Source of the DNA: an uncultured Oligoflexia bacterium
Lineage (GTDB): Bacteria; Bdellovibrionota; UBA1018; CAZJVD01
DNA length: 64,000 bases
Direction of reading: 5' to 3'
Assembly: GCA_964549505.1 (NCBI GenBank)
Contig: CAZJVD010000001.1
Span: 420,241 to 484,240, forward strand
Shown here: in pieces, positions 259-26,936 of the stretch
How the letters are laid out: each line of letters opens with the position of its first letter
Numbering within the stretch: the stretch's first letter is position 1
The notes under the pieces: generated by a model
Seen by the model: only the letters and a program-made list of their open reading frames with translations
Databases searched by the model: none
What the model was told of the DNA's origin: nothing
Made by a program: the position numbers and the translations under genes

Positions 259-2283
259 TTACCAGACGGAGACCGCACGCCGCAGCAGCTTCATCGCCAT
301 TTCGTGAATAGCGGAGAGCGTGCTTTCGTCGAGCTGTGGGTTCGTCGGTACGTCTACAGTGGGGGCTGTCGTTGGCGGACTTTCTTCGCCCTTGTTTTCG
401 GGCGCGGGTGCCGGTTGGTCGGCGCCTTTAGTGCTGTCGGTTTTATCGGCGTCGGTGTTGCCGATGTCGTCTGTTTTAGGGGCGTCGCCTGTATCGGGCG
501 CATTACCTGTATCACCGGCTTTTGGCGTCGGATCGTTTTCTGGTACTGGCTGCGAGTTCGCAGCGCGAGCTTCGAAGTCCTTCTGTTGCTTGATCAACAC
601 TTCAACGCGAGCAAGAGGTGTGCTGATATTGGTGATATTTGCGGTGATGGATTGGATCGCAAGCTGTGAAGGCATCAGATGGGCAATCGTAACTTTCGAA
701 GCACCGTGCGCGTTCAAAACGTTTTTCCAGAGTTCTGGGCTGAGGCAGATGCCTTCAACAGTACATTTTCCTGTCTTGGGATCGACCGGACCGTCATAGA
801 TCGGCCTCTTAGCCGAAAACGTGTTAGCGAGCTCATTCAGGATACTGTTGCGAGCTTCGACATCTTCCAAAAAGTTTTGATGATCGGTGACCGTTTTACG
901 TAAATCTTCGATTCGTTTCGTGAGCGCTTGGTACTCGGGCTCTTGCGAAGACTTCTCTTTGTATTTCCGAACCAAGTCGCGGTGATTCGCGCGCGCCTCA
1001 TCCAGCTCTTCTCTCAGCGTCGAGGGATCCATCGCTGCAAGCTGCGCTGCCCGCGCTTCGGATTCAGCCGCCAGTATCACGACCGCAAGCCCCTGTGCTT
1101 GGTACAACGCCTTCATCGGATCCATGCGAACCCAGTCGTCTCGATCCGTCCAAAGATTAGGCACCCATTCGGTGAGGACGCTATAACCAGCGCCCAACAG
1201 GAACGCATCACCTGCAATAACGCGGTAACTGCGCTTTTCGAACATACGTGTGAGAGCGTTGACAGGCTTTTCGATCCAACCCACCAGACGATCACCACCC
1301 GACTGTGTCGCGCTTCGTGCAAGAAAAGCCTCGTAGCGAGCAGCATCGAGAGCGTCGCGGCTCATCTCTGCGACCTTGGCTTCGGCACTAACTTGAGCAC
1401 TGACATCGCGACTGATGCCCTTTGCCTTTGTGAGGGACGACCACCAATTGCCCAGACGGCGTGTTCCCTGGATCAGTCGTCGCGACGGCGAGAGATACTC
1501 CCAAAGCTCCGCGAGGGGTTTTCCACCGCGGAAACTGAGAAAATGTGTGGCAATCCCGGCCACGATCACGACTCCCATCCAGTCTGAAGAAACTTCAAGC
1601 ATTCGTCCGACGTTGACTCCGCCGATTTCTGATTTGCGGCTGATCGCGACGACTTCGGCGACGTCCACAAAAATCGGCCAGAGCGGTTTCCAGGACTCAG
1701 GCATGACGTAGGTCAAAATACCTAAGCGAAGAATGATGCTGTTGAATCGACCTTCGTTCGTGATCTCGGTCAATTCATGTCGAAGAATCTCTTGGTCATT
1801 CGCGATGAGCTTGTTTAGGGCATAGGGCGAAATTTTAGTGACATCGAGCTTGGGGTGCATCCCTGTGGCGATTTGCTGTAAGAGAACGACGCGGTCTGTG
1901 ACCAGCCGTGCGCGACAGAAAATTTTAGCACCGTAGTCGTTTGGGTCTTCAGCGGTTCCGGCGGGATCTTCTTTACCGTCACCCGTCATGTCGGGACCTA
2001 GGTAAGGGAGTGCGTCGTCGTTATCGAGATCGTCGCAATCTGTCTTATCAGCGACCAAACGTTTCATCTGGTCTTCGGTAAAAACAGTGTCGCGCCCGGG
2101 AAAATACTTTGGTTTCGGGGGCGGCTTCTCCTGCGGCAGCTCGGATGTTTGTGGAAGCGTTCTCGGGTTTGGATCATTGGTGCTGACGCTGATGCTCCGT
2201 GCCCACGAAAGCGTCGGCGACTGAAAATACGTGGCGGCAACCAGGACCGAGAAGACCAGCTTTGCAGCGCGTGAGGTACTCAT
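259..2283 (-). CDS. Exported helical protein (674 aa) with two internal hydrophobic segments, a coiled coil and an acidic/Pro-rich tail; paralog of 16299..17651
   Basis: Signal peptide (..PTLSWA|); hydrophobic WMGVVIVAGIATHFL and VIAGDAFLLGAGYSVL; ATGA overlap with the upstream 1431-aa gene. Confidence 0.85.
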   Translation of the reverse strand: MSTSRAAKLVFSVLVAATYFQSPTLSWARSISVSTNDPNPRTLPQTSELPQEKPPPKPKYFPGRDTVFTEDQMKRLVADKTDCDDLDNDDALPYLGPDMTGDGKEDPAGTAEDPNDYGAKIFCRARLVTDRVVLLQQIATGMHPKLDVTKISPYALNKLIANDQEILRHELTEITNEGRFNSIILRLGILTYVMPESWKPLWPIFVDVAEVVAISRKSEIGGVNVGRMLEVSSDWMGVVIVAGIATHFLSFRGGKPLAELWEYLSPSRRLIQGTRRLGNWWSSLTKAKGISRDVSAQVSAEAKVAEMSRDALDAARYEAFLARSATQSGGDRLVGWIEKPVNALTRMFEKRSYRVIAGDAFLLGAGYSVLTEWVPNLWTDRDDWVRMDPMKALYQAQGLAVVILAAESEARAAQLAAMDPSTLREELDEARANHRDLVRKYKEKSSQEPEYQALTKRIEDLRKTVTDHQNFLEDVEARNSILNELANTFSAKRPIYDGPVDPKTGKCTVEGICLSPELWKNVLNAHGASKVTIAHLMPSQLAIQSITANITNISTPLARVEVLIKQQKDFEARAANSQPVPENDPTPKAGDTGNAPDTGDAPKTDDIGNTDADKTDSTKGADQPAPAPENKGEESPPTTAPTVDVPTNPQLDESTLSAIHEMAMKLLRRAVSVW

Positions 2284-5200
2284 TTGAAGTCGTCCTCACT
2301 GTTTGGCTCAGCGGTTGATTCAGTAGCGGGCTCAGTCTGTAGCGCATCTTGTGGCACGCCTGCTTGCGGAGCGATTTGCGTGAGTGCGGCCCCAGCCACG
2401 AATTGTTTCATGTACTCCACGAGACCCGAGTGATCCTTTGCTGGCAGCAAGATATACCGACGTGTTCCGTCTGCAGCGTCGAAGGCGTACTGTTTCAGCG
2501 GACCGGGCATCGTTCCGGTTTCGTATCGGCCGCGATACCACCATTCTAGCCGACTCGTGTTCCCCGTCGCACTCCGCATGGCTTCGCGTTCAAGCGTCGC
2601 CAATGCGGAGTTTTCGAGTTCGGACTGCCCAATAAAATAACGAGCTGCTTGGCGCTTAGTCTGTAGCGCCGGAATCAATTCTTTTGCTGCGCGATCAGCA
2701 TACGCAAAGTCTGCCGTCGAGATTTCGCCCTTAGCAAGCTTGGTGTTGAGGTCCGTGATCGCCTTAGCAATCTCTTCTGGATCGAAGGTCGGATCGCGCT
2801 TCAGCGCCTCGAAGTGGCGTTTGTGCTGTATCAAAAAACCGATGGCATCGTTGTGTGCTTTGATGACTTCTCGGCCAAGCGTGCGCTCCGCCCAGTTGAT
2901 GCGCTCGATAGCTAAGGCCGAGTCGCCCGTGTTACCTGCGGCCCGCGCTGAGTTTCGCGCGGACTCTGCCAACGAGGACAGTCGGCCTGGGTTGTGAACG
3001 ATTTCGACGAGGTCGTTACGCGTGATCCGCAGTTCGTCGAGCGCTTTTGTAATGCGCGACTGACGGCGTGCGGCCTGATAGCGCCCGACGCGCTCGAAAA
3101 CCTTCGCAAACAGCGGCGAATCCGAAAACGGATTTGGAACCGTTCCCACGACAAAGAGTCCGTCGAGAAGCACGCGCCAGTAGTAACCGGTCGCCATGGA
3201 GTCCAGAGAGTTTTCGATCTCTCGCAACGTCTCATCGGCGGCCAATCCGCCCTTGTCGACGCTACTCAAGTACAGTTCCCACGCCTCTTCTTCTTTGTTC
3301 GGCTGTGTGACCCAGCGATCGTAACTATAAAATCCGAGATTGACGACGGTTCCGAGTGCCATCGACCCAATGACAGCCCGAGGAACGACGGCATTGAAAC
3401 TCGCCATATATCCCCGCCCCATGCCACCTAACCACGTCGCTTTTCCGAAAACACCGAATAGACCGGGTAGGTAGAGCAACATCATCTTCCGAACGTATTG
3501 GTCGTGAAACTGATAGAAAAAGTACTCGAGTTTTCCGGGCATGTTGGTCGCCCACTTTTCTTCTAAGTACATGTTCTTGAACTGCGGATGTTCGCTCAGG
3601 ACCATCTCCGACCAGAGTGGATTGTTCACCAGCACCTGTCGGCGCTCTTTGGTGAGTTCGTTAAAGTCGTGAGCCTCTGCGAGTGCATCGATCTGATCTT
3701 GAATATAGTTGTCCGTTACTTCGGACAAGGTGCCTTCGACCCATTGAGCGATTTCTGGAAGCTTCGCGTCCGGAATCGTCTCACCCGGTTTCAGCGGACC
3801 CACCTTCTCCGCAAGCTTTGTGTAAAGAGGGATTTGGTCGTCCTCGTCGTCGGTTGGATTGATAGGTGCGCGCAGCGGATGGTTCTCAGCAAAATACTTG
3901 TCCATCGCAGCTTGGCGGTAGACTTCAAAGCCGCTCTTGTCGCCCGTAAAGACCGTGTTAACAAATGAACCCCACCAGCCAGAGTCCAATGACTTGACGT
4001 CAGAGAGATAAAGCGTTTTCTGACCGGGGCGCTTCTTGCTGTCCTTCGGTTCGAGCGTGAGTCCCATGCGTTCGCCGAGCGCGAGCATGTCCAAGAGATC
4101 TTCGCGAGCTTCCAGATTTGCGCGCTGAGCGACGACCGAGTCTTTTTTCTTGTACTCACTCGGGAGTTTCTGAATATCGAGAACATTTCCAAGCGCGATC
4201 TTTCGGGCTTGAGCAACATCCACACGATAACCGTTGTGAATGATCACGGAGGTCGCATTCTCAAAACGACTCACGGCCGCTTCGACAAAGGCAGCGTAAC
4301 GCATCTGGGCCGTTTCCCAAGATCCACCCTGTGCGATCAGGTCGAAGACTTTCATCACATCGTCTGAGATCCCCGGAGCTTCATCCGGTGCGAGAGGTTT
4401 ATCTCCCAACTGTACCCAACCAATGAACCACCAATGCTTGGCTCTTTCACTGAGCGGACGATCATGGCGCTCAAACCCTGTTTTGAGCTCCGGATTGTTC
4501 ATTCGAATCGAGAAAACTTCCCAAAGAACATCCACGTCGACTTCGAGATCGTCGTCACTGGTCTTTTCAATCGCGTTGGCTTGCACCGCCGCTTCGGCCA
4601 TCGAGCGCGCACGCGCCAAGCGAACGTTTTCTTTCAGTAACGTTTCCGTACGCACGCGAGCGCGATCGATCCACTTTTTCAAGTAATCAGGCGCGATGCC
4701 TTGAGCAAACTCGACGGCGTGGTTATCTAAAACCTCGCGTAGAGCTTGGGAGCCACCGGAGAAAAGGCTCTCGAGACGTTCTTCGACAGCACGATCGACT
4801 TCTTTGAACGTTTCTTCATCCAAAGGCTTATCCGTCGGAATCAGAGACTTGATCCCCGCGGCCGTGCTGAAAGCCACATCGGCTTTCGCGCGAGCCATCA
4901 ACCACGCCAGGTGTTGTGCGAGCTCGTCGTCCGAAGTGAGCTGTGTGAGCGGAACCGGCCAAGGTTGCGCCATCACGATCTCGGCTTTTTCGCTTCGGAC
5001 GCCAAGGGCTTGTCTTAAAAACTGTTCGGTGTGGTTGATCTCTTCGAAAACCCAAAGATTGTACGTCTCTGTAATCGACGCTAACTCCTGAGGAGTCTTC
5101 TCTTTGTGATAAGTAGCGCCTTGTAAACGCCGAACCGTTTCGACCACTGCGGGCGTGCTGTAGGCCATCCCGGCCGGAAGCATGTCCTCCGGAAGCCAGT

Positions 5201-6575
5201 GATCGATGAAGTAGTTACGATTGTGTAGGGCGAGATCCTTTGGAAAGAGGTCGGCGGTCTCGACGAGTGCCTGTCGGAACGCTTTTTCGCGTTCGGACTC
5301 GAGCGAAAGCGCTGCTTTCACAAGCATCGGTCGCAGTGATTCGAGACGGGCATCTAGAGTCGGTAAGTTATCGGCGGTCGGTGTCTTACCCTGATACATC
5401 AGCGACAGAGCGGCCTGCCGAAAGAGCTCGATCAGACCGTAGTAACGATAAAGTTCAAAGAGCGAAGACGAGCTCATGGTGTTTGCGATGCGTTCGATCG
5501 CGATGCCGGTCAGATGATGTTCTGAGAAACCGACCTTCAGCGTGGCGTCTGGATTGCTCGGGATACCCTTGAAGTCGCGGATCACATGCGGACCGTCGCG
5601 CGAAAGTCCTAACTCTTGGATCTCTTTGAGCCCGGTCATGGTCTCGAGCGCGCGCAACGAGATCTCGAGATCGTACTTAGCGATCCAAGCCGTCGATGCG
5701 TCCAGGCCAATAAGCGCGCGCGTTCGCGCGAGCATGTCGAGATCTTTCCAGTACTCGATCATCTTTTCGTACGTCACCACAGGAGGAGAGAAAACCCCCT
5801 CGGGTGCGTTTGGCTCCGCCTTGACGGTTCGGTCAAAAAGATAGCGATTGATAGCGACCGCTTTGTCCGCGTCCGAAAGCTTTGGGTCAGCAATGTTCGG
5901 CGGAATCGTGAGCTCAGGAGTCTGTTTGGGTTTTTCCTTGGGATACGCAATGAATCGACTGGTGAGGTCCCGGAAAGGAGCGAAAACGGTTTTTTCGAAG
6001 TTCTCGATCGTATCGACAGTCGGCGGGCAGTTTTCCGAGAACCGCGGCGAGGAGCCTGGAGCCTTTGCGCAGGTGTAGAGCGTGTTGATCTGGTCGCGCA
6101 CCGAGGCAGCGTGTTTTCTCCAGAACTCATGATGGTTCGCGTTCACACGATGAAAATACTCATACTTGGCTAGAGCGAGACGTTCTCGGCCCAGCCTCGC
6201 CTTTTGCTCTTCTGTCGCCCACTTACCGTAAGCCTCGACCTCTGCCTCTAATTGCTGGTCAGGTGTGAGATAGGGGAAGGGAAAGTCCCAGCGCTGACTA
6301 TCATCTTCAGCCGCGGCTTCTTCTTTGTAGACGAGCTCGTCCAGAGACTGCGTCGAGACATAATAGCCATCGGGATACTCATCGGGCAGCTGCTGCGTCG
6401 CCGGCGAGCTTGGTGCCGCAGCTGGCGAGACACCAGGACTGAGCGCCTTCTCCGCAGGAGTTTTTTGAGGCGTACCGTCCTGCCGGGACCGAGGGGCACC
6501 GAAAGAAGGAAGAGCCAAGAGAATAATCAGTAGCAAACCAGTGTTCAACATCCGCTTTATAACCACAAAAACCAC
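2280..6575 (-). CDS. Giant exported protein (~1430 aa; ATG at 6551 also plausible) with C-proximal membrane segments and two J-like repeats; paralog of 17648..21772
   Basis: Long ORF; N-terminal signal peptide (LLLIILLALPSFG|A); about three hydrophobic segments at ~3140-3490; motif similarity to the 1374-aa protein. Confidence 0.9.
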   Translation of the reverse strand: MVFVVIKRMLNTGLLLIILLALPSFGAPRSRQDGTPQKTPAEKALSPGVSPAAAPSSPATQQLPDEYPDGYYVSTQSLDELVYKEEAAAEDDSQRWDFPFPYLTPDQQLEAEVEAYGKWATEEQKARLGRERLALAKYEYFHRVNANHHEFWRKHAASVRDQINTLYTCAKAPGSSPRFSENCPPTVDTIENFEKTVFAPFRDLTSRFIAYPKEKPKQTPELTIPPNIADPKLSDADKAVAINRYLFDRTVKAEPNAPEGVFSPPVVTYEKMIEYWKDLDMLARTRALIGLDASTAWIAKYDLEISLRALETMTGLKEIQELGLSRDGPHVIRDFKGIPSNPDATLKVGFSEHHLTGIAIERIANTMSSSSLFELYRYYGLIELFRQAALSLMYQGKTPTADNLPTLDARLESLRPMLVKAALSLESEREKAFRQALVETADLFPKDLALHNRNYFIDHWLPEDMLPAGMAYSTPAVVETVRRLQGATYHKEKTPQELASITETYNLWVFEEINHTEQFLRQALGVRSEKAEIVMAQPWPVPLTQLTSDDELAQHLAWLMARAKADVAFSTAAGIKSLIPTDKPLDEETFKEVDRAVEERLESLFSGGSQALREVLDNHAVEFAQGIAPDYLKKWIDRARVRTETLLKENVRLARARSMAEAAVQANAIEKTSDDDLEVDVDVLWEVFSIRMNNPELKTGFERHDRPLSERAKHWWFIGWVQLGDKPLAPDEAPGISDDVMKVFDLIAQGGSWETAQMRYAAFVEAAVSRFENATSVIIHNGYRVDVAQARKIALGNVLDIQKLPSEYKKKDSVVAQRANLEAREDLLDMLALGERMGLTLEPKDSKKRPGQKTLYLSDVKSLDSGWWGSFVNTVFTGDKSGFEVYRQAAMDKYFAENHPLRAPINPTDDEDDQIPLYTKLAEKVGPLKPGETIPDAKLPEIAQWVEGTLSEVTDNYIQDQIDALAEAHDFNELTKERRQVLVNNPLWSEMVLSEHPQFKNMYLEEKWATNMPGKLEYFFYQFHDQYVRKMMLLYLPGLFGVFGKATWLGGMGRGYMASFNAVVPRAVIGSMALGTVVNLGFYSYDRWVTQPNKEEEAWELYLSSVDKGGLAADETLREIENSLDSMATGYYWRVLLDGLFVVGTVPNPFSDSPLFAKVFERVGRYQAARRQSRITKALDELRITRNDLVEIVHNPGRLSSLAESARNSARAAGNTGDSALAIERINWAERTLGREVIKAHNDAIGFLIQHKRHFEALKRDPTFDPEEIAKAITDLNTKLAKGEISTADFAYADRAAKELIPALQTKRQAARYFIGQSELENSALATLEREAMRSATGNTSRLEWWYRGRYETGTMPGPLKQYAFDAADGTRRYILLPAKDHSGLVEYMKQFVAGAALTQIAPQAGVPQDALQTEPATESTAEPNSEDDFK

Positions 6576-6667
6576 ATGAACTGGTGAGGCTTATTCAATT
6601 GTCGGAGAAGAGAATCTAAGGTGGGAAGTACGAGCCAAAACTTTATAATCAAAACTTTTTCGCTCAC

Positions 6668-6696
6668 CCGGGAACCCATTTTGATTGGGTTCCCGG
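6668..6696. other. 11-bp inverted repeat (RNA hairpin) between the 306-aa and 1431-aa genes
   Basis: CCGGGAACCCA-N7-TGGGTTCCCGG. Confidence 0.6.
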
Positions 6697-6718
6697 ACTC
6701 GCGATTTTTCTAACTAGG

Positions 6719-6744
6719 AAAAAGGTCTTTTTTTAGAAAGACCT
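6719..6744 (-). terminator. Intrinsic terminator-like hairpin after the 306-aa gene
   Basis: Minus strand AGGTCTTT-loop-AAAGACCT followed by a T-run, ~20 nt after the stop at 6766. Confidence 0.55.
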
Positions 6745-6765
6745 GTGTAGGGACCAGAACCGTTA

Positions 6766-7686
6766 TTAGGTTCCAGCTCCTACTAAAGCATCTTGAGCAA
6801 CTTCTGCTGCTGCTTGATCGCCGCCTGGAAGGTCAACAGTCAAGCAAGCTTCTGCTTCGCGGCCTTCGTTTGCTGCTGCAACCTTGTTCGGGAGCAACAA
6901 CAAGCTAGCAAGGCTTGAACGATCGAAGATCTTAGCAACATGTTGGTTCTTTAAGAGGCCTTCCAAAACGTTTTGGAAAGCTGTGTTGCCGGGATTTTCG
7001 ATCACGTCAGCGAGAGCGAAAATAAGTGTCTTTGCATTTTGAGCAGCCTCTGGCGAAAAGCCTTCGCCACGAAGGCACTGCTCGAAAATTTTCAGGTCAA
7101 CGATCTGAATACCAAGACGCTTTTCAGCGGAAACGATAGCGTTTACAGCCGCATCGGTATTGTATGTACCCAAACCCGCGTCGCCCACTGCTGCAGTGAT
7201 AGCGTTACGAATCTGTGTTTCGCGATCTTGGCCAGCAACCGTGCTCGCTGCGATACCTGCTGCAGCGATCGATGCCGTACGGCTATAGCCTTCGACATGT
7301 TCGCTAGCAATGGCGCTCACAGCAGCTTCGAGCTTTCCAGCATCTTTCAAGCTGTATGCATCGACGCTTTTGACGGCCTTAACGAGTTTTTGAACTTTTG
7401 CTTGGAGAGCCGGATTACCTTTTACGGCTTTCAAGACGGCTGCGTTTCTCTTTGCGAGAGATTGCGAATAAGCAGCTGAACCGACTGCGCCCGCAACTGC
7501 TGGCAAGTTGCCAACGATCGAAACGAGAGCCGAGGAGTAAGCTGACGTACCGGCAACTGCTTCAGGAACAGCACCAAGCTCTTGCGCAAGCGTCAATGCT
7601 TGGACGCCTTGCGGAGCAGCTGAAGCAACATTGAAGTTTGCGACTGCCGCGATAACACCTAGAACAACGAGTGTATTGAATTTCAT
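6766..7686 (-). CDS. Exported Ala-rich helical protein (306 aa); paralog of 21782..22561
   Basis: Classic signal peptide MKFNTLVVLGVIAAVANFNVASA|A; shared motif KRxG..FE(Q/T)CL; many GCT/GCA/GTT codons. Confidence 0.9.
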   Translation of the reverse strand: MKFNTLVVLGVIAAVANFNVASAAPQGVQALTLAQELGAVPEAVAGTSAYSSALVSIVGNLPAVAGAVGSAAYSQSLAKRNAAVLKAVKGNPALQAKVQKLVKAVKSVDAYSLKDAGKLEAAVSAIASEHVEGYSRTASIAAAGIAASTVAGQDRETQIRNAITAAVGDAGLGTYNTDAAVNAIVSAEKRLGIQIVDLKIFEQCLRGEGFSPEAAQNAKTLIFALADVIENPGNTAFQNVLEGLLKNQHVAKIFDRSSLASLLLLPNKVAAANEGREAEACLTVDLPGGDQAAAEVAQDALVGAGT

Positions 7687-7931
7687 TTTGAATTACCCTT
7701 TCTTCCTAGTTAATACTTTCGAAGCGCCCCCACAATCGGACCGCGTCTCGCGCGGGGAACTCAGCGAAATTTCTGTTTCATATTTCATGAGCTCACCCCG
7801 GTCAAGTTATACAGAAAAAACCAGAAAGTGCCCAAGAAACTTTGCTGTATGCGGTGGCAGAATTTAGTCGAATCGCCGCTCAGTGTCAAATGATTTTTGC
7901 GGGAAATCATGAAATCACACATCCGCTACCC

Positions 7932-13681: not shown

Positions 13682-13806
13682 TACTTCTTAGGGCCAGTAA
13701 TCCCGGCCTGTATATATCACCGACGCACCACAACAGAGAAGCTTGGAGTTTTTAACAAACCCGAGTCATTTTGTAAAGTATAATGATGGTTCACTAATGT
13801 TAACAA

Positions 13807-16302
13807 TTACAGGACGTCCACGAGGAGGGCTTGCTGCTGCTCGGGCCAAAACGCCACAGGGACCTCGTGTTGGATATCGTAGGTGCTGAGAAGCGACTGA
13901 AGCTTCTTGGTCATGTCGGTAGCTTTGGTGGCGATCTCGCTTGGAGCACGCCCGCGGGCAAAGACAAACTCGCGCGATAAAATTCGAAACGACATGGCCA
14001 CTGAAAATAAGACGTCAGACGCTTTAGCGCCCGCGCGATCCGGATCGGGTTGTTCTAGGCCCACGAGATCGCGGGTGCCTCGATACATTTCGTAGAAAAA
14101 ATCACCGACGCCATCGACCGTTCGTTCGATCGGACGGCAGAGCTGCTGCGCGTAGCGTTCTTCGATCGTCCGCTTACGATGCTCAAAGAGCGCGGCAACA
14201 GTTTCCGGAAAAGCGGTGCCAGACGTGAGATCGGAAGCCCGAGCGGCGACGTCCACATCCTCAAGGATTTTCTTAGCGACGGTTCTTTGAGAAAGAGGCC
14301 AGAGCCCAACCTGCTCATGGAAGAGCGCCGGTGTGAGTTCTAATACCGAGTCAGCGTTCGCTCGGGCCTGCATCGCAGCCAAAAGATTTTCATATGCAAA
14401 GTAAAGGCGCGCGTCTTGGCCCGTCTGATCCGCCGCGAGCTCGTGGATTTTCTGGCGATTCTGAGCGATCAGCTGCTTGACCTTGTTTTCAAAGCGCACG
14501 TCCTTTGCAACCACGCTCAATCCGCGGCGAAGGTTTTCTTCTTCGAACTGATCTTCGAGTGTGTACCGAGCGCCTTCGAACTCAGAGCGAAGCCTGCTGT
14601 ACTCTTCGTGACTGATGCGCTCGGGACGATCCGACGAGCCCGTTCCCTCGAGGACCTCAGGTCCCCAAAAGTTTCCGGTCCGCACCGAGCGGTAGTAAGC
14701 CGCGCGGACGCCTTGGACTTGGTTCCTGTAGCGATCGTCATGCGGAACCTCCATGAAGAACTTGAGTGGCATCTCGGCCGTAGCGTCCGGTCGCGCAGTG
14801 AAAAACCCGTATGGAATCTCTTCCTGACTGAGAAGAGCGTAGTTGTTCGGGGCCGCGAGTAGTCGCTGCATATCGTTCCAGCTTGGAAACGAACTCATCG
14901 CAAAGCGAGATTCTCGATTAAGATAAGGAGCCGCAATCAACTGATAGGTCGTTACCGTCGCGACGTCTTGCTCGCGCGTCTCTTGGTCGAGCGCAACAAA
15001 AAGATCGCGATAGGAGCGACTGTAGCTGGGTGACGAGCGCACCGTCTCCCACGTGAGGGCCGCCATCGCGTCGTGCAGCTCTCCAGAGAGAGCGAGGAGT
15101 TCAAAGTGAGAGTCCTTATGTTTCAAGATATAAACATTGCGAGCTGCTTCGAGCATCGTGTCGGACAGGTCGTAGTGGTCGAGCGTGATGTCGGAGACAG
15201 AAAGCGCGCGCAACTTCTGGTGAGCGTCGCATAGGCGATCGACCTCCGTGCCGATCTGTTCGATTTCCAGTTCATGCCTGAAGGAATACTCGACAAAATT
15301 TAAAATGAGCGTAATCACGACCGTGACGATCGCAACAGGTCCGACTTTCAAAGCAAGACCCGCCGTTGTGTTCAGGGTTTCGGCAAAACGAGCAACTCGC
15401 ACAATGCGTTCGAGACTCGCAATGGCTAAAGAGGTACCCGGCAGAACCGCCGAAAGCGTGAGAGACTGTACCTGTTCTTCGGCCAGTTCTCTCAAGGCGA
15501 CGAGTTCTTGCTGTTCGGGAGACAGCTCGACGCGTGACGTGTCCCGAACACCGCCAAATCCGAAAACAAGAGCAGGCGGCGGTATCACACCGGCTGAGAC
15601 GTAGTCTTCTCGATCGATGTCGCTCATGACTGCTGGTATCGCCGCGCCCCCAGTTGCCACGCTACGAAAGACCGCCGCTGTTCCCAAAATCCGTGCCGCA
15701 TAATCCAGTTGGGTCACAGCTGGGAGGAGCTTGATAAACTTTCCATATGCGAGCCAGTACATGAGGCTTGCGACGCCAGCAGCAGGAACCGAATACTTGA
15801 GATTCGACTGAAACTTCCGACTCTGAATCTTGATTCGCAGTGCCCGAACCAGGTTTCGATCTTCCCAAGAAGCCTGTAGGTTTCGTGCGAGCTCGATCGT
15901 CGCCAACGGCTGACGGGTCTTGTACTGAGCGGCATACGCCAAGAGATGTTCGTAACTCGAACCATCCACACCGTCGAAAACGAGCTCAGCGAACTCCGCA
16001 CGACAGTTCAAGGTACGCAGCCCCATCTCCGATGCGGACGAACGATGGGCGTGTGATGAAAAGTAGAGATCTACGAAACGTCGTCCGAGCGCCAAAGGGT
16101 CACTGTAGTTGGCTCGTTCCTCCGGGTCGAGGCAGGTGGCGCGGTCGCGGAGATCCGACCAGGAGTTGACTTGCGGGGCGTTCGCTTGCTCGTTTTCGAC
16201 GAAGCCAGCTGCGGCAAGCGGTGCATAGGCACGAGCACTTGTAGGTGCGGCCGTCTGAAAAAGGAGTGCGACGCTGAGGAAGGAGGCTAAGAACGATTTC
16301 AT
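13807..16302 (-). CDS. Exported helical protein (831 aa) with internal hydrophobic segments
   Basis: Signal MKSFLASFLSVALLFQTAAPTSARA|; hydrophobic PAAGVASLMYWLAY and VGPVAIVTVVITLILNFV; ATGA overlap with the upstream gene. Confidence 0.9.
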   Translation of the reverse strand: MKSFLASFLSVALLFQTAAPTSARAYAPLAAAGFVENEQANAPQVNSWSDLRDRATCLDPEERANYSDPLALGRRFVDLYFSSHAHRSSASEMGLRTLNCRAEFAELVFDGVDGSSYEHLLAYAAQYKTRQPLATIELARNLQASWEDRNLVRALRIKIQSRKFQSNLKYSVPAAGVASLMYWLAYGKFIKLLPAVTQLDYAARILGTAAVFRSVATGGAAIPAVMSDIDREDYVSAGVIPPPALVFGFGGVRDTSRVELSPEQQELVALRELAEEQVQSLTLSAVLPGTSLAIASLERIVRVARFAETLNTTAGLALKVGPVAIVTVVITLILNFVEYSFRHELEIEQIGTEVDRLCDAHQKLRALSVSDITLDHYDLSDTMLEAARNVYILKHKDSHFELLALSGELHDAMAALTWETVRSSPSYSRSYRDLFVALDQETREQDVATVTTYQLIAAPYLNRESRFAMSSFPSWNDMQRLLAAPNNYALLSQEEIPYGFFTARPDATAEMPLKFFMEVPHDDRYRNQVQGVRAAYYRSVRTGNFWGPEVLEGTGSSDRPERISHEEYSRLRSEFEGARYTLEDQFEEENLRRGLSVVAKDVRFENKVKQLIAQNRQKIHELAADQTGQDARLYFAYENLLAAMQARANADSVLELTPALFHEQVGLWPLSQRTVAKKILEDVDVAARASDLTSGTAFPETVAALFEHRKRTIEERYAQQLCRPIERTVDGVGDFFYEMYRGTRDLVGLEQPDPDRAGAKASDVLFSVAMSFRILSREFVFARGRAPSEIATKATDMTKKLQSLLSTYDIQHEVPVAFWPEQQQALLVDVL

Positions 16303-17651
16303 TTTTCGCCCTCCGTTTTCAATCCCGCCAAATGCAGACGAGCTTCGTGAAGTGATTCGTTAACGAGGTTGTTACCGATGATGGCGTCCATTTCAGGCAT
16401 CTTGAATTCGGCGCGTTCGGACTCAGCCCAGAGCATCTCATTGTCTTCGAGTTTGAATTTCTGCTCGTCTTTGTAGAGCGGGTTGTCCATGCCTTCTTTC
16501 CAGAACGAGTCGCATTCGAGCAACACATCAGACTGCGTTTGAAGAATGTCGATTCGCCGGGCAATCAGTGCTTTCTGATCGTCGGACGGCTTTTCGATCG
16601 ACTGTACTTCGTTCAGCACTTCGCGTGCATCCCACATCAAAAGCTGAAGTGCCAGCGCTTCGTAGTTGCGAAAAACTTCGTCGGGAGAGTCTTTTTCGTC
16701 TTGGCGGACCCAGAGATGAAAAGCTGTGTAACCGAGGGCCCCCGCCGTGCCAGCGATGAGAACGCGCGAAGGATCGCCACCGATCAGGCGGCTGAAGTCC
16801 GCGGCGCTCCGGGTTTGAATAAAGCGCAACCCCAACACGCGTCCGGCACGCGCGCGTGCAGCGAGCGAACCGACAAACTTTTTTGTTCCGACCGTAACCG
16901 TGTCGATCGGATGCAGGATCGCTTTTCCTGTGTTAACGGCCGTGTTTTCGATGCTGGATAACTTCGCAAGTCCTGCGGCCTTTGCATCTCGCGCGGCTTC
17001 GCGTGTGACCTGTTTGACGGCAGCAACCACTCCCTGGCGATCCACAGCAAGGTTGGCGGCGCGAACACGTTCTAAGACCTTGGGGACAGCATTACGAAGC
17101 ATCTTAAAGCCATTCCAACCAACCATCCTAGCGCCATTATAAGCAACCGTCGCCCACACAAGCGCGATCCATGCCCCACCGAAGCCGTGGATGGCGGAAC
17201 GTTCCCAGTAGTCCTGCGAACGTTCGTCGCGTTCTTCTTGGGTGTGTTTTGAGAGGGCCTTACGAAGGTCAGTGATGAGAGGCCGCTGTGAGGGATTCGC
17301 GACAAACATCGTCCCAAGCGTGCGCAGAACGGTGTTATGCACGTCGGGCCCCTGACTTATTAGGTCGCTCACGATGTTGTTGCCCATCTGTTCGCTAGCG
17401 TCTTGGGTGAGCGTGAGCTTCGGCGCACCGTCGAGCGTTTGAGGAATACCCAAGAGATCGAGCGTAAGAATGTCCTGTTCGTCGGAGAGCTCAAGACCGC
17501 CCGTCTGTGCTGTTTCCATGTAGGTCATGAGAGATTCCGACCAATCTTGCAGCGAGAACGGCGACTCATCTTCGTCGGCACGCGCCGGCACACTCACGGC
17601 CTGAGTGAACAGGCTGACCAGAAGCATCGGGACAATCATCGGGAGATTCAT
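16299..17651 (-). CDS. Exported helical protein (450 aa) with two hydrophobic segments; paralog of 259..2283
   Basis: Signal ..AVSVPARA|D; GFGGAWIALVWATVAY and VLIAGTAGALGYTAF; ATGA overlaps at both ends. Confidence 0.88.
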   Translation of the reverse strand: MNLPMIVPMLLVSLFTQAVSVPARADEDESPFSLQDWSESLMTYMETAQTGGLELSDEQDILTLDLLGIPQTLDGAPKLTLTQDASEQMGNNIVSDLISQGPDVHNTVLRTLGTMFVANPSQRPLITDLRKALSKHTQEERDERSQDYWERSAIHGFGGAWIALVWATVAYNGARMVGWNGFKMLRNAVPKVLERVRAANLAVDRQGVVAAVKQVTREAARDAKAAGLAKLSSIENTAVNTGKAILHPIDTVTVGTKKFVGSLAARARAGRVLGLRFIQTRSAADFSRLIGGDPSRVLIAGTAGALGYTAFHLWVRQDEKDSPDEVFRNYEALALQLLMWDAREVLNEVQSIEKPSDDQKALIARRIDILQTQSDVLLECDSFWKEGMDNPLYKDEQKFKLEDNEMLWAESERAEFKMPEMDAIIGNNLVNESLHEARLHLAGLKTEGEK

Positions 17652-20600
17652 CGGGCCTCCCCTGTCGCCCCAGCGTCTTTTACGACGAGATCGGCCAGTC
17701 GCGAGTAGTGGCGGCTTTCGTTGAGCAAGAGCAGAATACTTTCTACTTTTGGGCTCGCTTCGGGCACGGCACGATCGCGGAACCAGAAACCATCCGCGTT
17801 CTTCTTGAGTGCTCCCGTGGCCAGATCGTATCGCGCGACGGTTTCAAAACGTTCACGATCGGACTTGAGCAGACGCGCTTGCCGTTTGGCCAGGGGCTCG
17901 AGGAGTGCCCGCTTTTGTGCCGCAGTCACTGTTTCATCGAGTGCTACCTGTAGGATGTTTAAAAGGCCGGAAGTCGCTGTGATGCCGCGTTCATCGTCTG
18001 GTTTGAGCGATAGATCTTTCTTCAGTTTTGCGAGCGTATCGGTTCGTGAAAGCGGATCAATCGAAAGTGCAACGACCTGTCGAGCAGCGCGGCCCTCGGA
18101 TTCTTGAAGCGCGATGTATTCGACCTCGAGTTGCGGGTACTCGCTTCGTAACTTCTGAATGCGGTCCTGAACCTCCGATGCTGTAGCCGCCGACCATGGC
18201 AACACATAGACGCGACGTCCGGACAATGTCGTACCCCAAAGCTCAGGGTCGCCTTCCGTGTTGATACCCGCAAGGATGTCGCGGATCTCTTGCGGCAGAT
18301 GTTCTCCGAAGCGTCCGAGATAAAGTTCCTGGAGATAGGGACGACCGCTCGTAATCGCACGCATATGCGCGAAAGTTCCATTGATCCGAACGACAGCCAG
18401 CTCAATCTGGCGTCGTTCACTGTCGGTGAGCGCGCGACTTCCCATCAGCTTTCGCAACCGAGCGAGATGTTCTGCCAGTATGTCGGGCGTGAGTCCTTCG
18501 GGCTTGAGCCCGAGTGTTCTCAAGTCATACTTGTGAAGATGAACGAGGGTGTCCCAGCTTTTTTCCACGCTACGTAGCAACGACTGCAGTTCGTCGCGTG
18601 CGGATTCGACCTCTTGAGCGTCACGTTCGCGTCCCGCTCGACGGTGTTCGGCTGCGACCGCGTCGGCTTGTTTGCCGATCGCATCGCGATTCCACTGAAA
18701 ATCACTTTTCCAGCCCAGCTTTCCGAAAAGTTCGGCCGATCGCTGTTCGATACCGCGTGCGCCCAGCACCCATTCACCTGGAGTAAACCAGGTCCGCGGG
18801 TTCATCAGACTACGAGCATTAAACTTAAACGCGTAGATCTTTGGCTTCGAAAAGCGGCTCTTCGCAAATATTCCGTACGCCTTGAACGCGCCAACGATGA
18901 GCATGTTGGAGAGAACAGCCGCTTCTTCTTCTTGAAACTGTTGGTGACTGCGTTCGAGATCCTCGCCCAAAATAACATGCTCTCCGCCCGGGCTTGCGGC
19001 GTAGTCGTCGAGGGCGCCAAAGAGTCGCGCGCGCCCGCTCTTTCCGAAGATCCACCATGTCGATAGATCCCAAGGCGAGAAGTAGTAGTTGACGGGTTTC
19101 GCGATCACGTCTTTCATCACGATCAGGTGCATGCTTGTGTGAAACCAACCAAAAGCCATGAGAGGAGCTGCGATCCCTTGAGCGGTTTTCAGAAACGGTG
19201 GGATATCTCCTAGGACCGGAACACCCTTCGTGAAGCGACTGAACACACCCGTGCCCAGCGTAAAGCAAGAGGCAGCAACAACATAGTTGCCGTCGACCAG
19301 ACTGATTATCGCGATCAGCCCCGGAGAAAACGAAGCGTAGTTCCCGATGTTAAAGAGCATATGAACCGCGTCGTCGAGAGCCAGCTCGTGCCGGGCGGGA
19401 TACAGGATTTCTCGAAGCGCTTTTTGGTGTTCGTCCGTTAGGCTTGGAAAGCGCGCCATGAGGTCCGACAGGAGCGACGAATCGATCCATGCGCGGAGGT
19501 CCTCGACGGAGTTGGCTCCGCCGATCGTTTTTAAGTTGTCTAAAATTCGCTCCTCGCTTCGCTCCAACGCCTCGTCGAGTAAGCGCGCGAACGTCGCATG
19601 ATCAGGGTTCTTGGCTGCGAGCTCGTCGGCAAGATTAGAGTCCCAGTCGCGCTGATCCAGCCACGTCCATTTCGACAGCCAATTGTAGAGGCCTCGTACG
19701 GGTTTAATATGCGAAACAAACCGATCAAACGCGCTGAGGTCTCCGCCGAAGCGTGACGAGAGGATCGGGATCTTGTCGATCTCGATCTCTTTACGAGCCT
19801 GAAGATAGAGTTTTACGAGTTGAGGTTCCTTGACGAGATCGGTGTACGCCGGTGGACAGTCGTCCCGTCGCGTGAAACCGAAGTAATCTCCGATCCAGGC
19901 GAGATGCTCGAGCATGTCGAACATATCTTGCGCGGTCTTGGCGTCGATACGATCCATCAGTTTGTTTTTTCCGCCCGTACGTGACGGCGGGGGATTTTCC
20001 TTGGCGCGGGCTCGATCCGAGCGAACATTCGCGCTCAGCCGATCGACGAGAAGCTTGAGCGGAAGCCCCTCGTCGGTCAGCTGGAGCGCTGTGTGTATCC
20101 AACTCCGGTACCACCCGCGGGCGGTAGCGTAGTCTTCTGCAGAAACCAACATTTGAAGGTATTTGAGTGTCGGCGTCGAAAAGCCGAGATACGGGTGTTT
20201 AAAGTTCTTGTCGTTCTGGTGCTCGAGCATCCAGCGTGACGTAGCAAGATGCAGAGCCGGAATACTCACTTCTTCGGGTGGATTTCGAACGGTTTCAACG
20301 ATCGCGGCGACTTCCGCTTCCCATTTCAAGCGCGAGATCTGGTTGGCGGCGTACTGGCCCGACGGTTCGGCAGTCGCAGCGTCGATCCAAGCTTTTGTCA
20401 TGCTCGCGATGAGAGCGGCTCCGTTTTTAGTATCCCGTTGGATCGTGATGAGAGCCTTTTCGACATACGCACGCAGGCGTCGATGTGCGCCGTCGATGAT
20501 CTCGCGAGACCGCTTCGCTTCGGCACTCTCTTCGGGAGTGTTGTCGAGCCCAAACAGACCTGAAACGTCCATCACACCCGTGAACATGGCCTCGGTTTCC

Positions 20601-21772
20601 GCCATGCCCTGTACGATGGATTCGGCAAGTGCCGACATGAAAACCGCGCCGATCGTTCGCGAGTCGGGCATCCCCTTTCGGTCGGTCACCCCGTTGGGCC
20701 AAGCTGCGACCAAACTCTGGAGTTCGACGGGAAGTCCTTCGGCGATTCGTGTCTGACCGATCTGGACAATCGTACTGGACAGTTCTGCAACCGGTGCGCC
20801 TTCGCGAGCGTCGATGATCACGCCATAAGCACCACGAAAGCGTTCGTCGTTCCACAAAGTCTGTACGAGTGATCCCCAGTCCACCTTCTCAGCGGTCTTT
20901 CCAAGGCGCAGGCGTAGGTCTTGGTCGGGTTCGTCATCTACTTGTTGTTGCGGCGAAAAACCGACGAAGTCACTTAGGTCGTCAGGAGGTTTGGGACCCG
21001 GTTCGTGATCGCGACCGAGGAGAAACCGCACCATCGCAAGTTTGTCAGACCAAAAGGAATAAAGAGCGCCACGGGTCAAGAGCAGATGCTGTTCGGCCGT
21101 TGGAACGGAAGCCCGCGAGGAGATTCGCTCAAGGGTGAGTCGGTCACGTGACAGGCGCAGCGTAACAGATTCTTGATCATACGTGATCTCGAGCGAGGCA
21201 AGCGGTGAAGCCGTGTCGGGCGAGAGAACGGCCTGGTTGGTCAGCGCGCCCAGCAGGCGATCCGCAGTGGATCGGTTCAGGCGCACGGTGTACTTGTTAA
21301 AAAACTCTTCGTTTGCAACGCCGGGATAGAGTCGACCGTAGATATCAACCAAGCGTTCCACTTGAGAGAAATACTGGCGTAACAAGACGGATTGGTGAAT
21401 TGACAGCAGTGTCGCGGACTCCATTTCTTCGACGTAGGAACCCTGCGAAGCGCGACTAAACGGATTCGTCGCAAAGAAAAACGAAAGATCGGATCCAAGA
21501 CGATCGACTTGCTTTGCGACTGCGAAAAACGCTGTCTTAGCTTCGGATTGTCGGCTTATGGCCGCGCTGATCGCCCTTGAAATTTCGATATCAAGTTTCT
21601 GGGTCCGTTCGAGTAAAGCCGAAGCGTCGTTGAAACGAGGTTGATCGTCCTCGGATCGTGCGAACGTAGAAAACGAGAGAGTAAAAATGAAAAGCGTAAG
21701 GACGGTAACCCAACGGGTCTGCGTTGACCGAAGCTTTGGCTCAGACTGAAAGCCAAGACACATCACGGGCAC
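17648..21772 (-). CDS. Giant exported protein (~1370 aa; ATG 21763 after an AGGAG SD likely) with membrane segments and two J-like repeats; paralog of 2280..6575
   Basis: Signal WVTVLTLFIFTLSFSTFARS|; hydrophobic cluster at ~18880-19365; shared C-terminal GRRVYVLP vs GTRRYILLP. Confidence 0.9.
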   Translation of the reverse strand: MPVMCLGFQSEPKLRSTQTRWVTVLTLFIFTLSFSTFARSEDDQPRFNDASALLERTQKLDIEISRAISAAISRQSEAKTAFFAVAKQVDRLGSDLSFFFATNPFSRASQGSYVEEMESATLLSIHQSVLLRQYFSQVERLVDIYGRLYPGVANEEFFNKYTVRLNRSTADRLLGALTNQAVLSPDTASPLASLEITYDQESVTLRLSRDRLTLERISSRASVPTAEQHLLLTRGALYSFWSDKLAMVRFLLGRDHEPGPKPPDDLSDFVGFSPQQQVDDEPDQDLRLRLGKTAEKVDWGSLVQTLWNDERFRGAYGVIIDAREGAPVAELSSTIVQIGQTRIAEGLPVELQSLVAAWPNGVTDRKGMPDSRTIGAVFMSALAESIVQGMAETEAMFTGVMDVSGLFGLDNTPEESAEAKRSREIIDGAHRRLRAYVEKALITIQRDTKNGAALIASMTKAWIDAATAEPSGQYAANQISRLKWEAEVAAIVETVRNPPEEVSIPALHLATSRWMLEHQNDKNFKHPYLGFSTPTLKYLQMLVSAEDYATARGWYRSWIHTALQLTDEGLPLKLLVDRLSANVRSDRARAKENPPPSRTGGKNKLMDRIDAKTAQDMFDMLEHLAWIGDYFGFTRRDDCPPAYTDLVKEPQLVKLYLQARKEIEIDKIPILSSRFGGDLSAFDRFVSHIKPVRGLYNWLSKWTWLDQRDWDSNLADELAAKNPDHATFARLLDEALERSEERILDNLKTIGGANSVEDLRAWIDSSLLSDLMARFPSLTDEHQKALREILYPARHELALDDAVHMLFNIGNYASFSPGLIAIISLVDGNYVVAASCFTLGTGVFSRFTKGVPVLGDIPPFLKTAQGIAAPLMAFGWFHTSMHLIVMKDVIAKPVNYYFSPWDLSTWWIFGKSGRARLFGALDDYAASPGGEHVILGEDLERSHQQFQEEEAAVLSNMLIVGAFKAYGIFAKSRFSKPKIYAFKFNARSLMNPRTWFTPGEWVLGARGIEQRSAELFGKLGWKSDFQWNRDAIGKQADAVAAEHRRAGRERDAQEVESARDELQSLLRSVEKSWDTLVHLHKYDLRTLGLKPEGLTPDILAEHLARLRKLMGSRALTDSERRQIELAVVRINGTFAHMRAITSGRPYLQELYLGRFGEHLPQEIRDILAGINTEGDPELWGTTLSGRRVYVLPWSAATASEVQDRIQKLRSEYPQLEVEYIALQESEGRAARQVVALSIDPLSRTDTLAKLKKDLSLKPDDERGITATSGLLNILQVALDETVTAAQKRALLEPLAKRQARLLKSDRERFETVARYDLATGALKKNADGFWFRDRAVPEASPKVESILLLLNESRHYSRLADLVVKDAGATGEAR

Positions 21773-21781
21773 TCCTAAAAT

Positions 21782-22561
21782 CTATCGACACACGCCAGCG
21801 ACGGCCGCTCGACTAAAAACCTGGCAGGCATCTTCGGACAGTGTGCACACTTCTCGCCTGGATCGCTTCGTATAGCGTTCCATGGCCTCAATCAGTCGCG
21901 TTCCCAGTTCACCAGCCGAGCGAGCGATGCGGGACTCGATGACGGCTCTCAAAATATTCGAGACGGGTCGTGCGGGCATTTTTGAAAGGCACGTTTCAAA
22001 GGTACGGGCAAAAACAGAAACTCCGGTGCGTTTGACGATTTCGGTCGAAGCTCTTTGTGCTGCGGCAAATACAGCAGGCTCGACCTTCTCGGCGCCCGTA
22101 CGGTCGCGTTCGGTTTCGACGGCACGAAGCGAAGCCTCCATTTCGCGTGCGTTGAGTGGACGTTCGCCGGAGGCGTTGGTTTTGTCCGCAGATCGTGGGC
22201 TGATCGCCGTTAGCTCTTTCAATGAATCGTAAACCGAAGCTGTACGCGCTCGGCCTCGCGCGAGGTCGTCGAACCAGCGCTCAAGTTTCGTTACGCGCTC
22301 TTCACCGCCGCGTTCACGGACGCGCTCGGCCAGTGCAGTATAGCGCTCACTAGGAGTCTTGAGTGCCCACGTATCGAAACCGAGTCCGATACTTTCCATG
22401 AGTTTACGTGCCTCGGGGTTGCGCCGCATCTCCCTCACCATCTCCACCGACACTTCCCTCCCTCCACCCTTGCCCTGAGCCCAAACTACTGAGCTCTGTT
22501 GAACAAGCAGGAACAGGATCAAGCCGATCGTTGATAGCCGGTGAGAGTGCCGAAAATGCAT
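21782..22561 (-). CDS. Exported small protein (259 aa) with C-terminal cysteines; paralog of 6766..7686
   Basis: Signal ..LILFLLVQQSSVVWA|Q; KRTGVSVFARTFETCL motif; 9-nt gap to the next gene. Confidence 0.85.
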   Translation of the reverse strand: MHFRHSHRLSTIGLILFLLVQQSSVVWAQGKGGGREVSVEMVREMRRNPEARKLMESIGLGFDTWALKTPSERYTALAERVRERGGEERVTKLERWFDDLARGRARTASVYDSLKELTAISPRSADKTNASGERPLNAREMEASLRAVETERDRTGAEKVEPAVFAAAQRASTEIVKRTGVSVFARTFETCLSKMPARPVSNILRAVIESRIARSAGELGTRLIEAMERYTKRSRREVCTLSEDACQVFSRAAVAGVCR

Positions 22562-26557: not shown

Positions 26558-26936
26558 GCGTACGCACAGCGGGGAAGCCACTTCCCCATCGCTTCCCTTC
26601 GGATTTGAAAACCGCCTTCATAAGCGAGCTGATTTCCTAAGATTTTTTGAGAACAGCCAAGCGCGTAAGCGTGGTGATGTTCTCTATTTTGTGACGACGA
26701 ACGATCGCGACTGTTTTCGTCTCGGCGTCACGTTCAAGCTTCGTATGAGTTCTGTTGTGCGCAATCGTCTGCGCCGCGCGATTCGGGAAACGTTCCGATT
26801 GCTCGGACCCGAGCTCCGCGGTCGCGACTTTAACGTTGTGGTACGACGGGAAAGCTGCTTAGATCCGTTGGGTCAAAAACGTTTCCGATCGGACTTAAGA
26901 GAGCTTCTTCTGCTGGAGAGAAAAGGGAATTCGTAA
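26541..26936 (+). CDS. rnpA: Ribonuclease P protein component
   Basis: [24 protein letters not shown] (RNR motif); position after rpmH; exact start uncertain. Confidence 0.9.

Follow-up and report, generated by a model that had tools for sequence, protein, structure and literature searches.

Two remotely related copies of a candidate exported membrane module beside dnaA in an uncultured Oligoflexia bacterium

The gene run next to dnaA

The DNA studied here is a stretch of 64,000 nucleotides (nt; the window) from an uncultured Oligoflexia bacterium of the phylum Bdellovibrionota (assembly GCA_964549505.1, contig CAZJVD010000001.1, positions 420,241 to 484,240 of the forward strand). In it, a run of minus-strand genes adjoins dnaA and includes a Clp-like double AAA+ gene and two sets of genes, each for a small secreted, a giant and a helical protein. 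An earlier note, made from the letters alone, had proposed that these sets are anciently diverged copies of one three-gene cassette. The six open reading frames (ORFs) that it named were all found where it had put them, as was every motif that it quoted. Judged by profile comparison, the two giants (G_A and G_B) and the two helical proteins (H_A and H_B) are true but very remote homologues, and they belong to a module that has so far been found only in Bdellovibrionota, a phylum of predatory bacteria. Throughout, coordinates are positions in the window, G000 denotes the window's own genome, and the suffixes A and B mark the cassette copy. The features of the run are the following (aa, amino acids).

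24820-26298, minus strand: dnaA
23912-24811, minus strand: TylF-type methyltransferase gene
22767-23843, minus strand: p358, a secreted protein with an HEVGH motif, directly upstream of S_A
21782-22561, minus strand: S_A, 259 aa, small secreted protein of the four-cysteine SMALL family
17648-21772, minus strand: G_A, 1374 aa, copy A of the GIANT family
16299-17651, minus strand: H_A, 450 aa, copy A of the H2 family
13807-16302, minus strand: p831, 831 aa, H1 family
11771-13681, minus strand: p636, secreted Pro-rich protein
7932-11822, minus strand: Clp-like double AAA+ gene, an ORF of 1296 aa, or 1279 aa from the ATG at 11771
7861-7889, minus strand: promoter-like site upstream of S_B, TTGACA-17-TAAATT, 10 of 12 matches (a consensus match only)
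6766-7686, minus strand: S_B, 306 aa, small secreted protein rich in Ala, Val and Gly, occupying the position of a SMALL gene
6723-6744, minus strand: terminator-like hairpin directly 3' of S_B, an eight-pair stem followed by TTTTCC (a consensus match only)
2280-6575, minus strand: G_B, 1431 aa, copy B of the GIANT family
259-2283, minus strand: H_B, 674 aa, copy B of the H2 family

The gene order in G000 is S_A, G_A, H2_A, H1, p636, Clp-like, S_B, G_B and H2_B. Both copies had been said to share the same ATGA coupling. This holds for the giant-to-helical junctions, since G_A/H_A and G_B/H_B are each joined by an ATGA overlap, but not for the small-to-giant junctions, where 9 nt separate the two genes in copy A and 190 nt, including the terminator-like hairpin, in copy B. 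The statement that the cassettes flank the Clp-like gene is only approximately right, as p831 and p636 intervene between copy A and that gene. The end of H_A and p831 overlap by 4 nt. Moreover, p636 runs into the Clp-like gene through a TAATG overlap, and for this reason the ATPase probably starts at the ATG at 11771 rather than at the upstream TTG. S_B is bracketed by the promoter-like site and the terminator-like hairpin (6723-7889), so that it may form its own transcription unit inside the operon. A 12-residue window of mean hydropathy of at least 2.2 was found at the N-terminus of all ten operon proteins.

Homology and age of the two copies

When the copies were compared directly, the best BLASTP E values were 0.36 for the small pair, 0.35 for the giant pair and 1.1 for the helical pair. 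Each of the six proteins was also searched by phmmer against the 13,422 six-frame segments of at least 80 aa from G000 (the frames used in all searches of this genome), and no cross-hit was obtained at E<=10. Smith-Waterman scores were matched by 5 of 200 shuffles for the small proteins, by 2 of 60 for the giants and by 172 of 200 for the helical proteins, the score of the last pair lying below the shuffle mean. None of the six had a match in Pfam (at E<=0.01), PHROGs or PADLOC. In NCBIfam none was found for S_A, S_B, G_B or H_A, and the hits of G_A and H_B (E 0.009-0.014) were far below cut-off and to models outside the type VI secretion system (T6SS). Single-sequence searches with G_A and with G_B each found relatives in none of 40 genomes of the same order. 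A word-index search returned G_A alone when G_A was the query and nothing, not even the query itself, when G_B was used; yet G_B is present letter for letter in the ESM Atlas. A feature search of that atlas gave nearly identical top clusters for G_A and G_B, at scores (0.80-0.81) that correspond to the chance level. Among these chance-level clusters were a Tle1-like_C lipoprotein cluster and a Mycoplasmatota cluster.

A search with residues 175-1374 of G_A against 1.84 billion representatives yielded one marginal relative, P0002 (E 9.3e-4; by BLASTP, 1e-14 over 236 columns), through which P0003, 41% identical to P0002, was reached. Four scans for loci, two in metagenome-contig and two in genome-contig collections, confirmed none, and no genomic context of P0002 or P0003 was obtained. 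A three-sequence profile matched G_B in its own genome at 3.4e-7, and a profile of P0002 and P0003 only gave 5.3e-9 for G_A and 1.3e-3 for G_B in G000, the next frame scoring 0.16. Up to 20 kb was fetched around family matches, the neighbouring genes were clustered by phmmer, and hidden Markov models (HMMs) were built from foreign genomes only. When an HMM of 14 foreign giants was run against the 13,422 frames, G_B (5.5e-46) and G_A (5.5e-32) came out as the top two, with the next frame at 0.17, which bears out the proposed homology of the giants. G_B is collinear with this HMM over about 1,070 residues, from HMM position 118 to 999 and from residue 269 to 1342 of the stop-to-stop frame (about 264-1337 of G_B). 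Methodologically, comparing the proteins in pairs revealed nothing (E about 1), and it took profiles of syntenic relatives to bring the support to E 1e-46.

The register in which the earlier note had set the giants side by side was then right for four of its five motif pairs, which lie within one residue of each other in an 18-row family alignment: LYLQARKE/VYRQAAMD and ILDNL../IQDQ.. are exactly opposite, and MARFP/LSEHP and the membrane block are offset by at most one residue. The remaining pair, GRRVYVLP/GTRRYILLP, is offset by 61 residues. G_A has a signal-peptide-like N-terminus, a long helical region and three conserved hydrophobic helices at about 813-975; the family-mean hydropathy peaks fall at G_A 19-37, 813-831, 868-890 and 952-975, and the membrane block of G_B lies within one residue of that of G_A. 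The giants of the relatives are annotated as 'hypothetical protein' of Bacteriovoracia, Halobacteriovoraceae or Bacteriovoracales bacteria. The giant of one genome, G379 (C21:16010-19267), was matched across one in-frame TGA.

For the helical pair, an HMM of 13 foreign H2 sequences gave 3.8e-7 for H_A and 5.5e-3 for H_B among the G000 frames (next frame 0.31). When the model was extended to 18 foreign sequences, these values became 1e-8 and 7.7e-5 (next frame 0.015), and the homology proposed for the pair was upheld together with its register. The block by which the two had been aligned by eye, VLIAGTAGALGY...P in one and VIAGDAFLLGAGY...P in the other, is the best-conserved block of the H2 family, and it contains the sole invariant column of the H2 alignment, Pro323 of H_A. 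The H1 protein p831 was recognised by an HMM of 10 foreign sequences at 1.3e-14 (next frame 0.34) and is the sole H1 member that this HMM found in G000; by phmmer, the H1 of locus L087 matched p831 at 5.7e-5. The H proteins also carry hydrophobic segments. A profile-profile comparison of H1 with H2 gave a probability of 1.1 and showed no relation. An 875-aa protein at L037:6455-9082 is a fusion of H1 (8e-173, this protein being in the training set) and H2 (1.5e-9).

The SMALL family comprises, outside G000, four proteins encoded just upstream of giants and one encoded downstream in L087. Most members have four Cys near the C-terminus, about 76/22/12/1 residues from the end (to 80/24/13/2), and the member at L028 has three, at 82/38/21. 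In S_A the spacing is 68/20/13/1. When S_A was aligned with the small protein of L033, residues 70-258 gave a Smith-Waterman score of 79, which was reached by none of 500 shuffles, with all four Cys aligned. An HMM of the family without any G000 sequence ranked S_A first of 13,422 frames, albeit at E 0.54, and a loose form of the Cys pattern occurs in 17 of 3,930 G000 frames of at least 150 aa, S_A included. From these comparisons, S_A is a member of the conserved four-cysteine SMALL family. S_B has two Cys only, at 204 and 281, and when the 26-residue motif of S_A was used as a query, S_B ranked 102nd of 13,422 frames. The place of S_B, after the ATPase gene and before the giant, equals that of the small gene in L033, L035 and L039. 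Its sequence and setting resemble the SMALL family by position, size, the two Cys and a weak motif only, and we give about even chances that it is a degenerate member.

As to the age of the split, phmmer comparisons among 27 giants paired G_A best with P0002 (2e-11) and the f19 giants, and G_B best with the giant of L039 (2.6e-5). G_A against G_B gave E 1.2-1.6 in this set, among the weakest pairs, and each scored higher against foreign giants than against the other. In a tree of 23 of the 27 rows (four partial rows were excluded), G_A and G_B fall, without being sisters, in one 10-row clade together with the loci that have small genes and ATPases (Shimodaira-Hasegawa-like approximate likelihood ratio test, 95). 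End branches of this tree are about 2 changes per site long, and the pairing of G_B with L085 (86) links two long branches. On these sequence comparisons, the split of the two copies is old and nothing beyond that can be said: duplication and acquisition fit alike, and the tree gives no order of events.

Recurrence, the ATPase and the neighbouring genes

Outside G000, 27 giant loci were found, 22 of which have at least 1,500 nt of sequence downstream. H1, H2 or both were present in 20 of these 22, a count that includes some neighbours on which the H HMMs had been trained; among the informative loci fetched after the HMMs were built, H1 or H2 was found in four of six, and in neither L084 nor L085. 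Where present, the H genes lie downstream of the giant in 19 of the 20 loci, mostly with 4-nt overlaps, and upstream in G001. Of 21 loci with room upstream, only 4 have the small four-cysteine gene ahead of the giant. An AAA+ gene adjoins the module in G000 and in G001, where the order is Clp-like, H1, H2, small, giant. Adjoining AAA+ genes, with AAA hits ranging from weak to clear, were also found in L033 (1194 aa), in L035 (2149 aa), in L085 (869 aa) and in L039, where the gene is truncated by the end of the contig, and every adjoining ATPase whose N-terminus is present (G001, L033, L035 and L085) has a hydrophobic, signal-peptide-like start. The very large proteins among these, at L035:6242-12691 (2149 aa) and L039:13061-17338 (at least 1425 aa), come from two small genomes of family f19, in which their genes precede small-giant-H2; their AAA hits are only faint, a pattern search showed no Walker A, and the N-terminus of the L035 protein is hydrophobic.

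The idea of a conserved module thus stands in its pairing of giant and helical genes but fails as a fixed triplet, given how seldom the small gene takes part. A 'three-gene cassette' is the wrong unit, because the recurrent set includes H1 and often an AAA+ protein of the exported type. The comparison of loci supports a unit made up of the giant and H1/H2, to which the small gene and the putatively exported AAA+ protein may or may not be added. The profile of P0002 and P0003 matched 19 of 401 sampled genomes of the phylum; with the improved giant profile, matches were found in 34 of the 401 and in 20 of 116 genomes of the order (both counts including G000). One giant locus per genome is usual, and two separate loci were found in G000, G034, G416 and G115. 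Among the titles and abstracts that a literature search brought up, none dealt with a module of this kind or with an AAA+ protein that is exported in Bdellovibrionota.

The Clp-like protein of the window has the Pfam domains AAA (413-525), AAA_2 (825-948) and ClpB_D2-small (1078-1158). It aligns with the ClpV, ClpB and ClpA models over about 600 residues, and it carries extra domains without a family at both ends, N-terminal ones of about 350 aa and C-terminal ones of about 140 aa. Its best NCBIfam hit was the ClpV model TIGR03345 (172.1 bits, far short of the cut-off of 884.95), and the ClpB model TIGR03346 gave 164.3 bits against a cut-off of 1232.1. The Pfam Torsin model PF06309 gave 19.8 bits (E 9e-4), below its gathering threshold of 27, and the Torsin hit of the ATPase of G001 was weak (E 9.5e-3). 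The N-terminus of the Clp-like protein is hydrophobic and signal-peptide-like, and its second ring (D2) keeps a Walker A motif, GNSGLGKT, and a Walker B motif of the form hhhhDE. With the ATPase of G001 it shares the D2 module only (25% identity, E 5e-13). Ordinary ClpB- and ClpA-like genes are also encoded in G000.

Among the other genes of the run, p636 had no Pfam or NCBIfam family and no significant paralogue among the G000 frames (a single hit at 0.037 on contig C10), and a comparison with the f19 downstream family found no relation. The protein p358, whose HEVGH motif is of the HExxH type, has a paralogue on contig C6 (E 1.7e-61) and no Pfam family; no relative of it was seen in the other module loci, and its membership in the module is uncertain. 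On the genome scale, dnaA lies about 27 kb from dnaN-recF-gyrB-fabH-gyrA, on the same strand throughout (locus L091, G000:C1:403000-420600). The stretch between dnaA and dnaN contains the whole module, a PrkA-like gene and a gene for a 1003-aa protein with DUF444 and SpoVR domains, and its guanine-plus-cytosine content is not unusual. A single ORF at 26936-28621 combines a YidD domain (residues 2-78) with a YidC/60KD_IMP domain (residues 357-536).

Structure models were made with AlphaFold2 from the family alignments. Residues 232-1431 of G_B were modelled as all-helical (pLDDT 71.7, pTM 0.61), as was H_A (pLDDT 62.5). The fold searches used whole models, and a part of a protein may yet have a known fold; in these searches, H_A gave nothing above noise by Foldseek against the PDB (best E 0.17), and a VIA-align comparison of the G_B model with 48,161 chains gave a best Z of 6.9 on 60-residue helical hairpins, below the noise level of helical models. 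The best Foldseek match of G_B was RidL at 1.2e-3, with a TM score of 0.06-0.08, and we judged it meaningless. Profile searches of the sequences of solved structures gave a best E of 0.43 for the giants and coiled-coil noise only for H2. In the searches run here, the families of the module are without a relative in Pfam, NCBIfam, PHROGs, PADLOC or solved structures. They may be called categorically new in the sense that no known relative was found, which is not to say that a new mechanism has been demonstrated.

Possible function and likeness to known systems

The reading toward which we lean, with moderate confidence, is that the window holds two ancient paralogous copies of a new Bdellovibrionota module, of the envelope or directed at prey, that would be an exported membrane complex with an ATPase. 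Its core would be the giant (about 1,000-1,450 aa, all-helical, with a signal-peptide-like N-terminus and three moderately hydrophobic helices three quarters of the way along) and one or two helical H1/H2 proteins that appear to form hydrophobic hairpins and to be translationally coupled to it. One branch of the family adds the small secreted four-cysteine protein and an AAA+ protein of the ClpB-D2 type with a signal-peptide-like start. From their N-termini, all parts would be exported by Sec, and the giant and H proteins could assemble through their hydrophobic helices into a membrane complex outside the predator's cytoplasm. The conservation of Walker motifs in ATPases that look exported points to a working place with ATP, and the ATPase would act with the complex where ATP is available, for a periplasm-invading predator most plausibly at or across the cytoplasmic membrane of the prey or in its cytoplasm. 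With a single H1 and a single ATPase between them, the two copies might then be versions that replace each other or assemble together.

Several observations weigh against this reading. G000 is a metagenome-derived assembly. The homology that had been proposed for the small pair was not confirmed: hhalign gave S_A and S_B a probability of 0.1, the SMALL HMM ranked S_B seventh at E 2.5 even with S_A added, S_B aligned out of register with the small protein of L033, and the best local alignment of S_A with S_B, in a register different from the one claimed, was reached by 19 of 1000 shuffles. The internal hydrophobic peaks of the giants reach only 1.1-1.3 on the Kyte-Doolittle scale. Many giant-H1-H2 loci have no AAA+ gene nearby, and the giant family was found in none of the 53, 34 and 17 genomes of three well-sampled families; from this patchy distribution, the module is not needed for predation in general. 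As for the Clp-like protein itself, its first ring (D1) is degenerate, with GPRGSGRNT and LVLVIRE read by eye at the Walker A and B positions, and in an alignment with the ClpB- and ClpA-like proteins of G000 the GYVG pore loop of D2 is missing. This loop is also missing in the ATPase of L085 and is kept in those of G001 and L033. Neither mark of a ClpB/Hsp104-type threading unfoldase, the aromatic GYVG loop of D2 or Walker motifs intact in D1 as well as D2, is seen in the Clp-like protein of G000, which, from its motifs, looks crippled as a threading motor.

According to the chief rival, the module serves house-keeping in the envelope of the bacterium itself, as a complex of the predator's inner membrane. 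The helices would be stop-transfer anchors left after cleavage of the signal peptides, the large periplasmic domains would form a scaffold or maintenance machine, the Clp-like protein would be held by an uncleaved N-terminal helix, and nothing would reach the prey. We regard this as possible, though on the unlikely side. The three conserved hydrophobic helices of the giants and the hydrophobic segments of the H proteins would suit such a complex, and so would the tight coupling of genes in one operon adjoining dnaA and the lack of secretion-system genes among the neighbourhood genes scanned. It would, however, place an ATPase with intact D2 Walker motifs, in type II orientation, in the ATP-free periplasm. 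Moreover, four relatives of the ATPase start with a short hydrophobic segment, and those of L033 and L035 look, by eye, like classic cleavable signal peptides; the patchy distribution also speaks against a core envelope role. A more daring version of the favoured reading, in which the module is an ATP-driven machine directed at the prey after the manner of the Plasmodium translocon of exported proteins (PTEX) or of torsins, is one we hold to be improbable. By this analogy, the exported ClpB-D2-like ATPase and the giant and H proteins would enter the cytoplasmic membrane of the prey from its periplasmic face and move or remodel material across it, and the two giant/H2 sets would represent two specificities or stages.

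Two further explanations are, in our view, scarcely credible. If the resemblance of the cassettes were due to chance or composition, as between helical secreted proteins rich in Ala, Leu and Glu and of similar size, there would be no duplication; the direct pairwise tests were indeed negative, the helical pair scored below its shuffles, and the likeness in the ESM Atlas was at the chance level. But profiles made solely from foreign sequences ranked the four predicted genes, and no others, as the top two of 13,422 frames in each of two families, and the long collinearity of G_B with its HMM, along with the register proposed beforehand, refutes chance for the giant and helical pairs and lets it survive for the small pair only. 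Just as faint is the chance that the module is a very divergent T6SS membrane complex, with the small protein as TssL, the giant as TssM, the helical protein as TssA and the Clp-like protein as ClpV. In its favour are the ClpV1 model as the best NCBIfam hit of the ATPase and the sizes and order of the genes, which we take to resemble those of tssL-tssM-tssA. The ClpV score is, however, far below its cut-off and about equal to the ClpB score, and searches of Pfam and NCBIfam assigned none of the other nine proteins to a T6SS family. Among the neighbours scanned, no family of sheath, tube, spike or baseplate proteins was seen, no genome-wide family search having been made; the ATPase and all of its partners have signal-peptide-like N-termini, and the fold searches list no T6SS chain.

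How periplasm-invading predators act on the cytoplasmic membrane and the cytoplasm of their prey is still poorly understood. A recurrent, phylum-restricted set of large, putatively exported proteins, tied in several genomes to AAA+ ATPases with signal-peptide-like starts, defines a candidate machine, and it would already be unusual for an ATPase to work beyond the cytoplasm of a bacterium. If the PTEX- or torsin-like version were true, no exported AAA+ machine would have been described in bacteria before this one, which would also be a concrete candidate route of periplasmic predators to the cytoplasm of the prey.

Among known systems, the ClpB/Hsp104/ClpV class resembles the ATPase of the window in its two AAA modules, its ClpB D2-small domain and its intact D2 Walker A and B motifs. 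The window's protein differs from that class by scores that remain at 164-172 bits where the cut-offs are 885-1232, by extra domains without a family and by its signal-peptide-like N-terminus, as well as by the degenerate D1 Walker motifs and the absent D2 GYVG loop. With the T6SS membrane complex, TssL-TssM-TssA with ClpV, the module has in common the order of a small, a giant and a mid-sized helical protein beside a ClpV/ClpB-like ATPase, but its partners have no family match, no core genes lie nearby, and all module proteins look exported.

Torsins and PTEX are the closest analogies, and they are analogies only; the searches gave no sequence or fold evidence of kinship to either. An excerpt of one account describes torsins as the sole AAA+ proteins of the nuclear envelope and endoplasmic reticulum network (PMC7175109). 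The window's protein is bacterial, lies below the Torsin cut-off and has no recognised LAP1-like partner; by analogy, it would nevertheless be like torsins in having a single active ring related to ClpB-D2, a signal peptide and a place of action beside membrane proteins. Torsins, which are AAA+ ATPases of the endoplasmic reticulum lumen with membrane-bound activators, are not known to have aromatic pore loops. For PTEX, which consists of HSP101, PTEX150 and EXP2, an excerpt of another account names HSP101 as the force-generating ATPase (PMC8693896). Although the searches run found no part of PTEX to be similar in sequence or fold, and although the ATPase of G000 lacks the D2 pore loop, both systems would, by analogy, bring together a ClpB-like ATPase that is secreted, large proteins of a novel kind and a component that inserts into membranes, each made by an organism that sits inside a compartment of its host.

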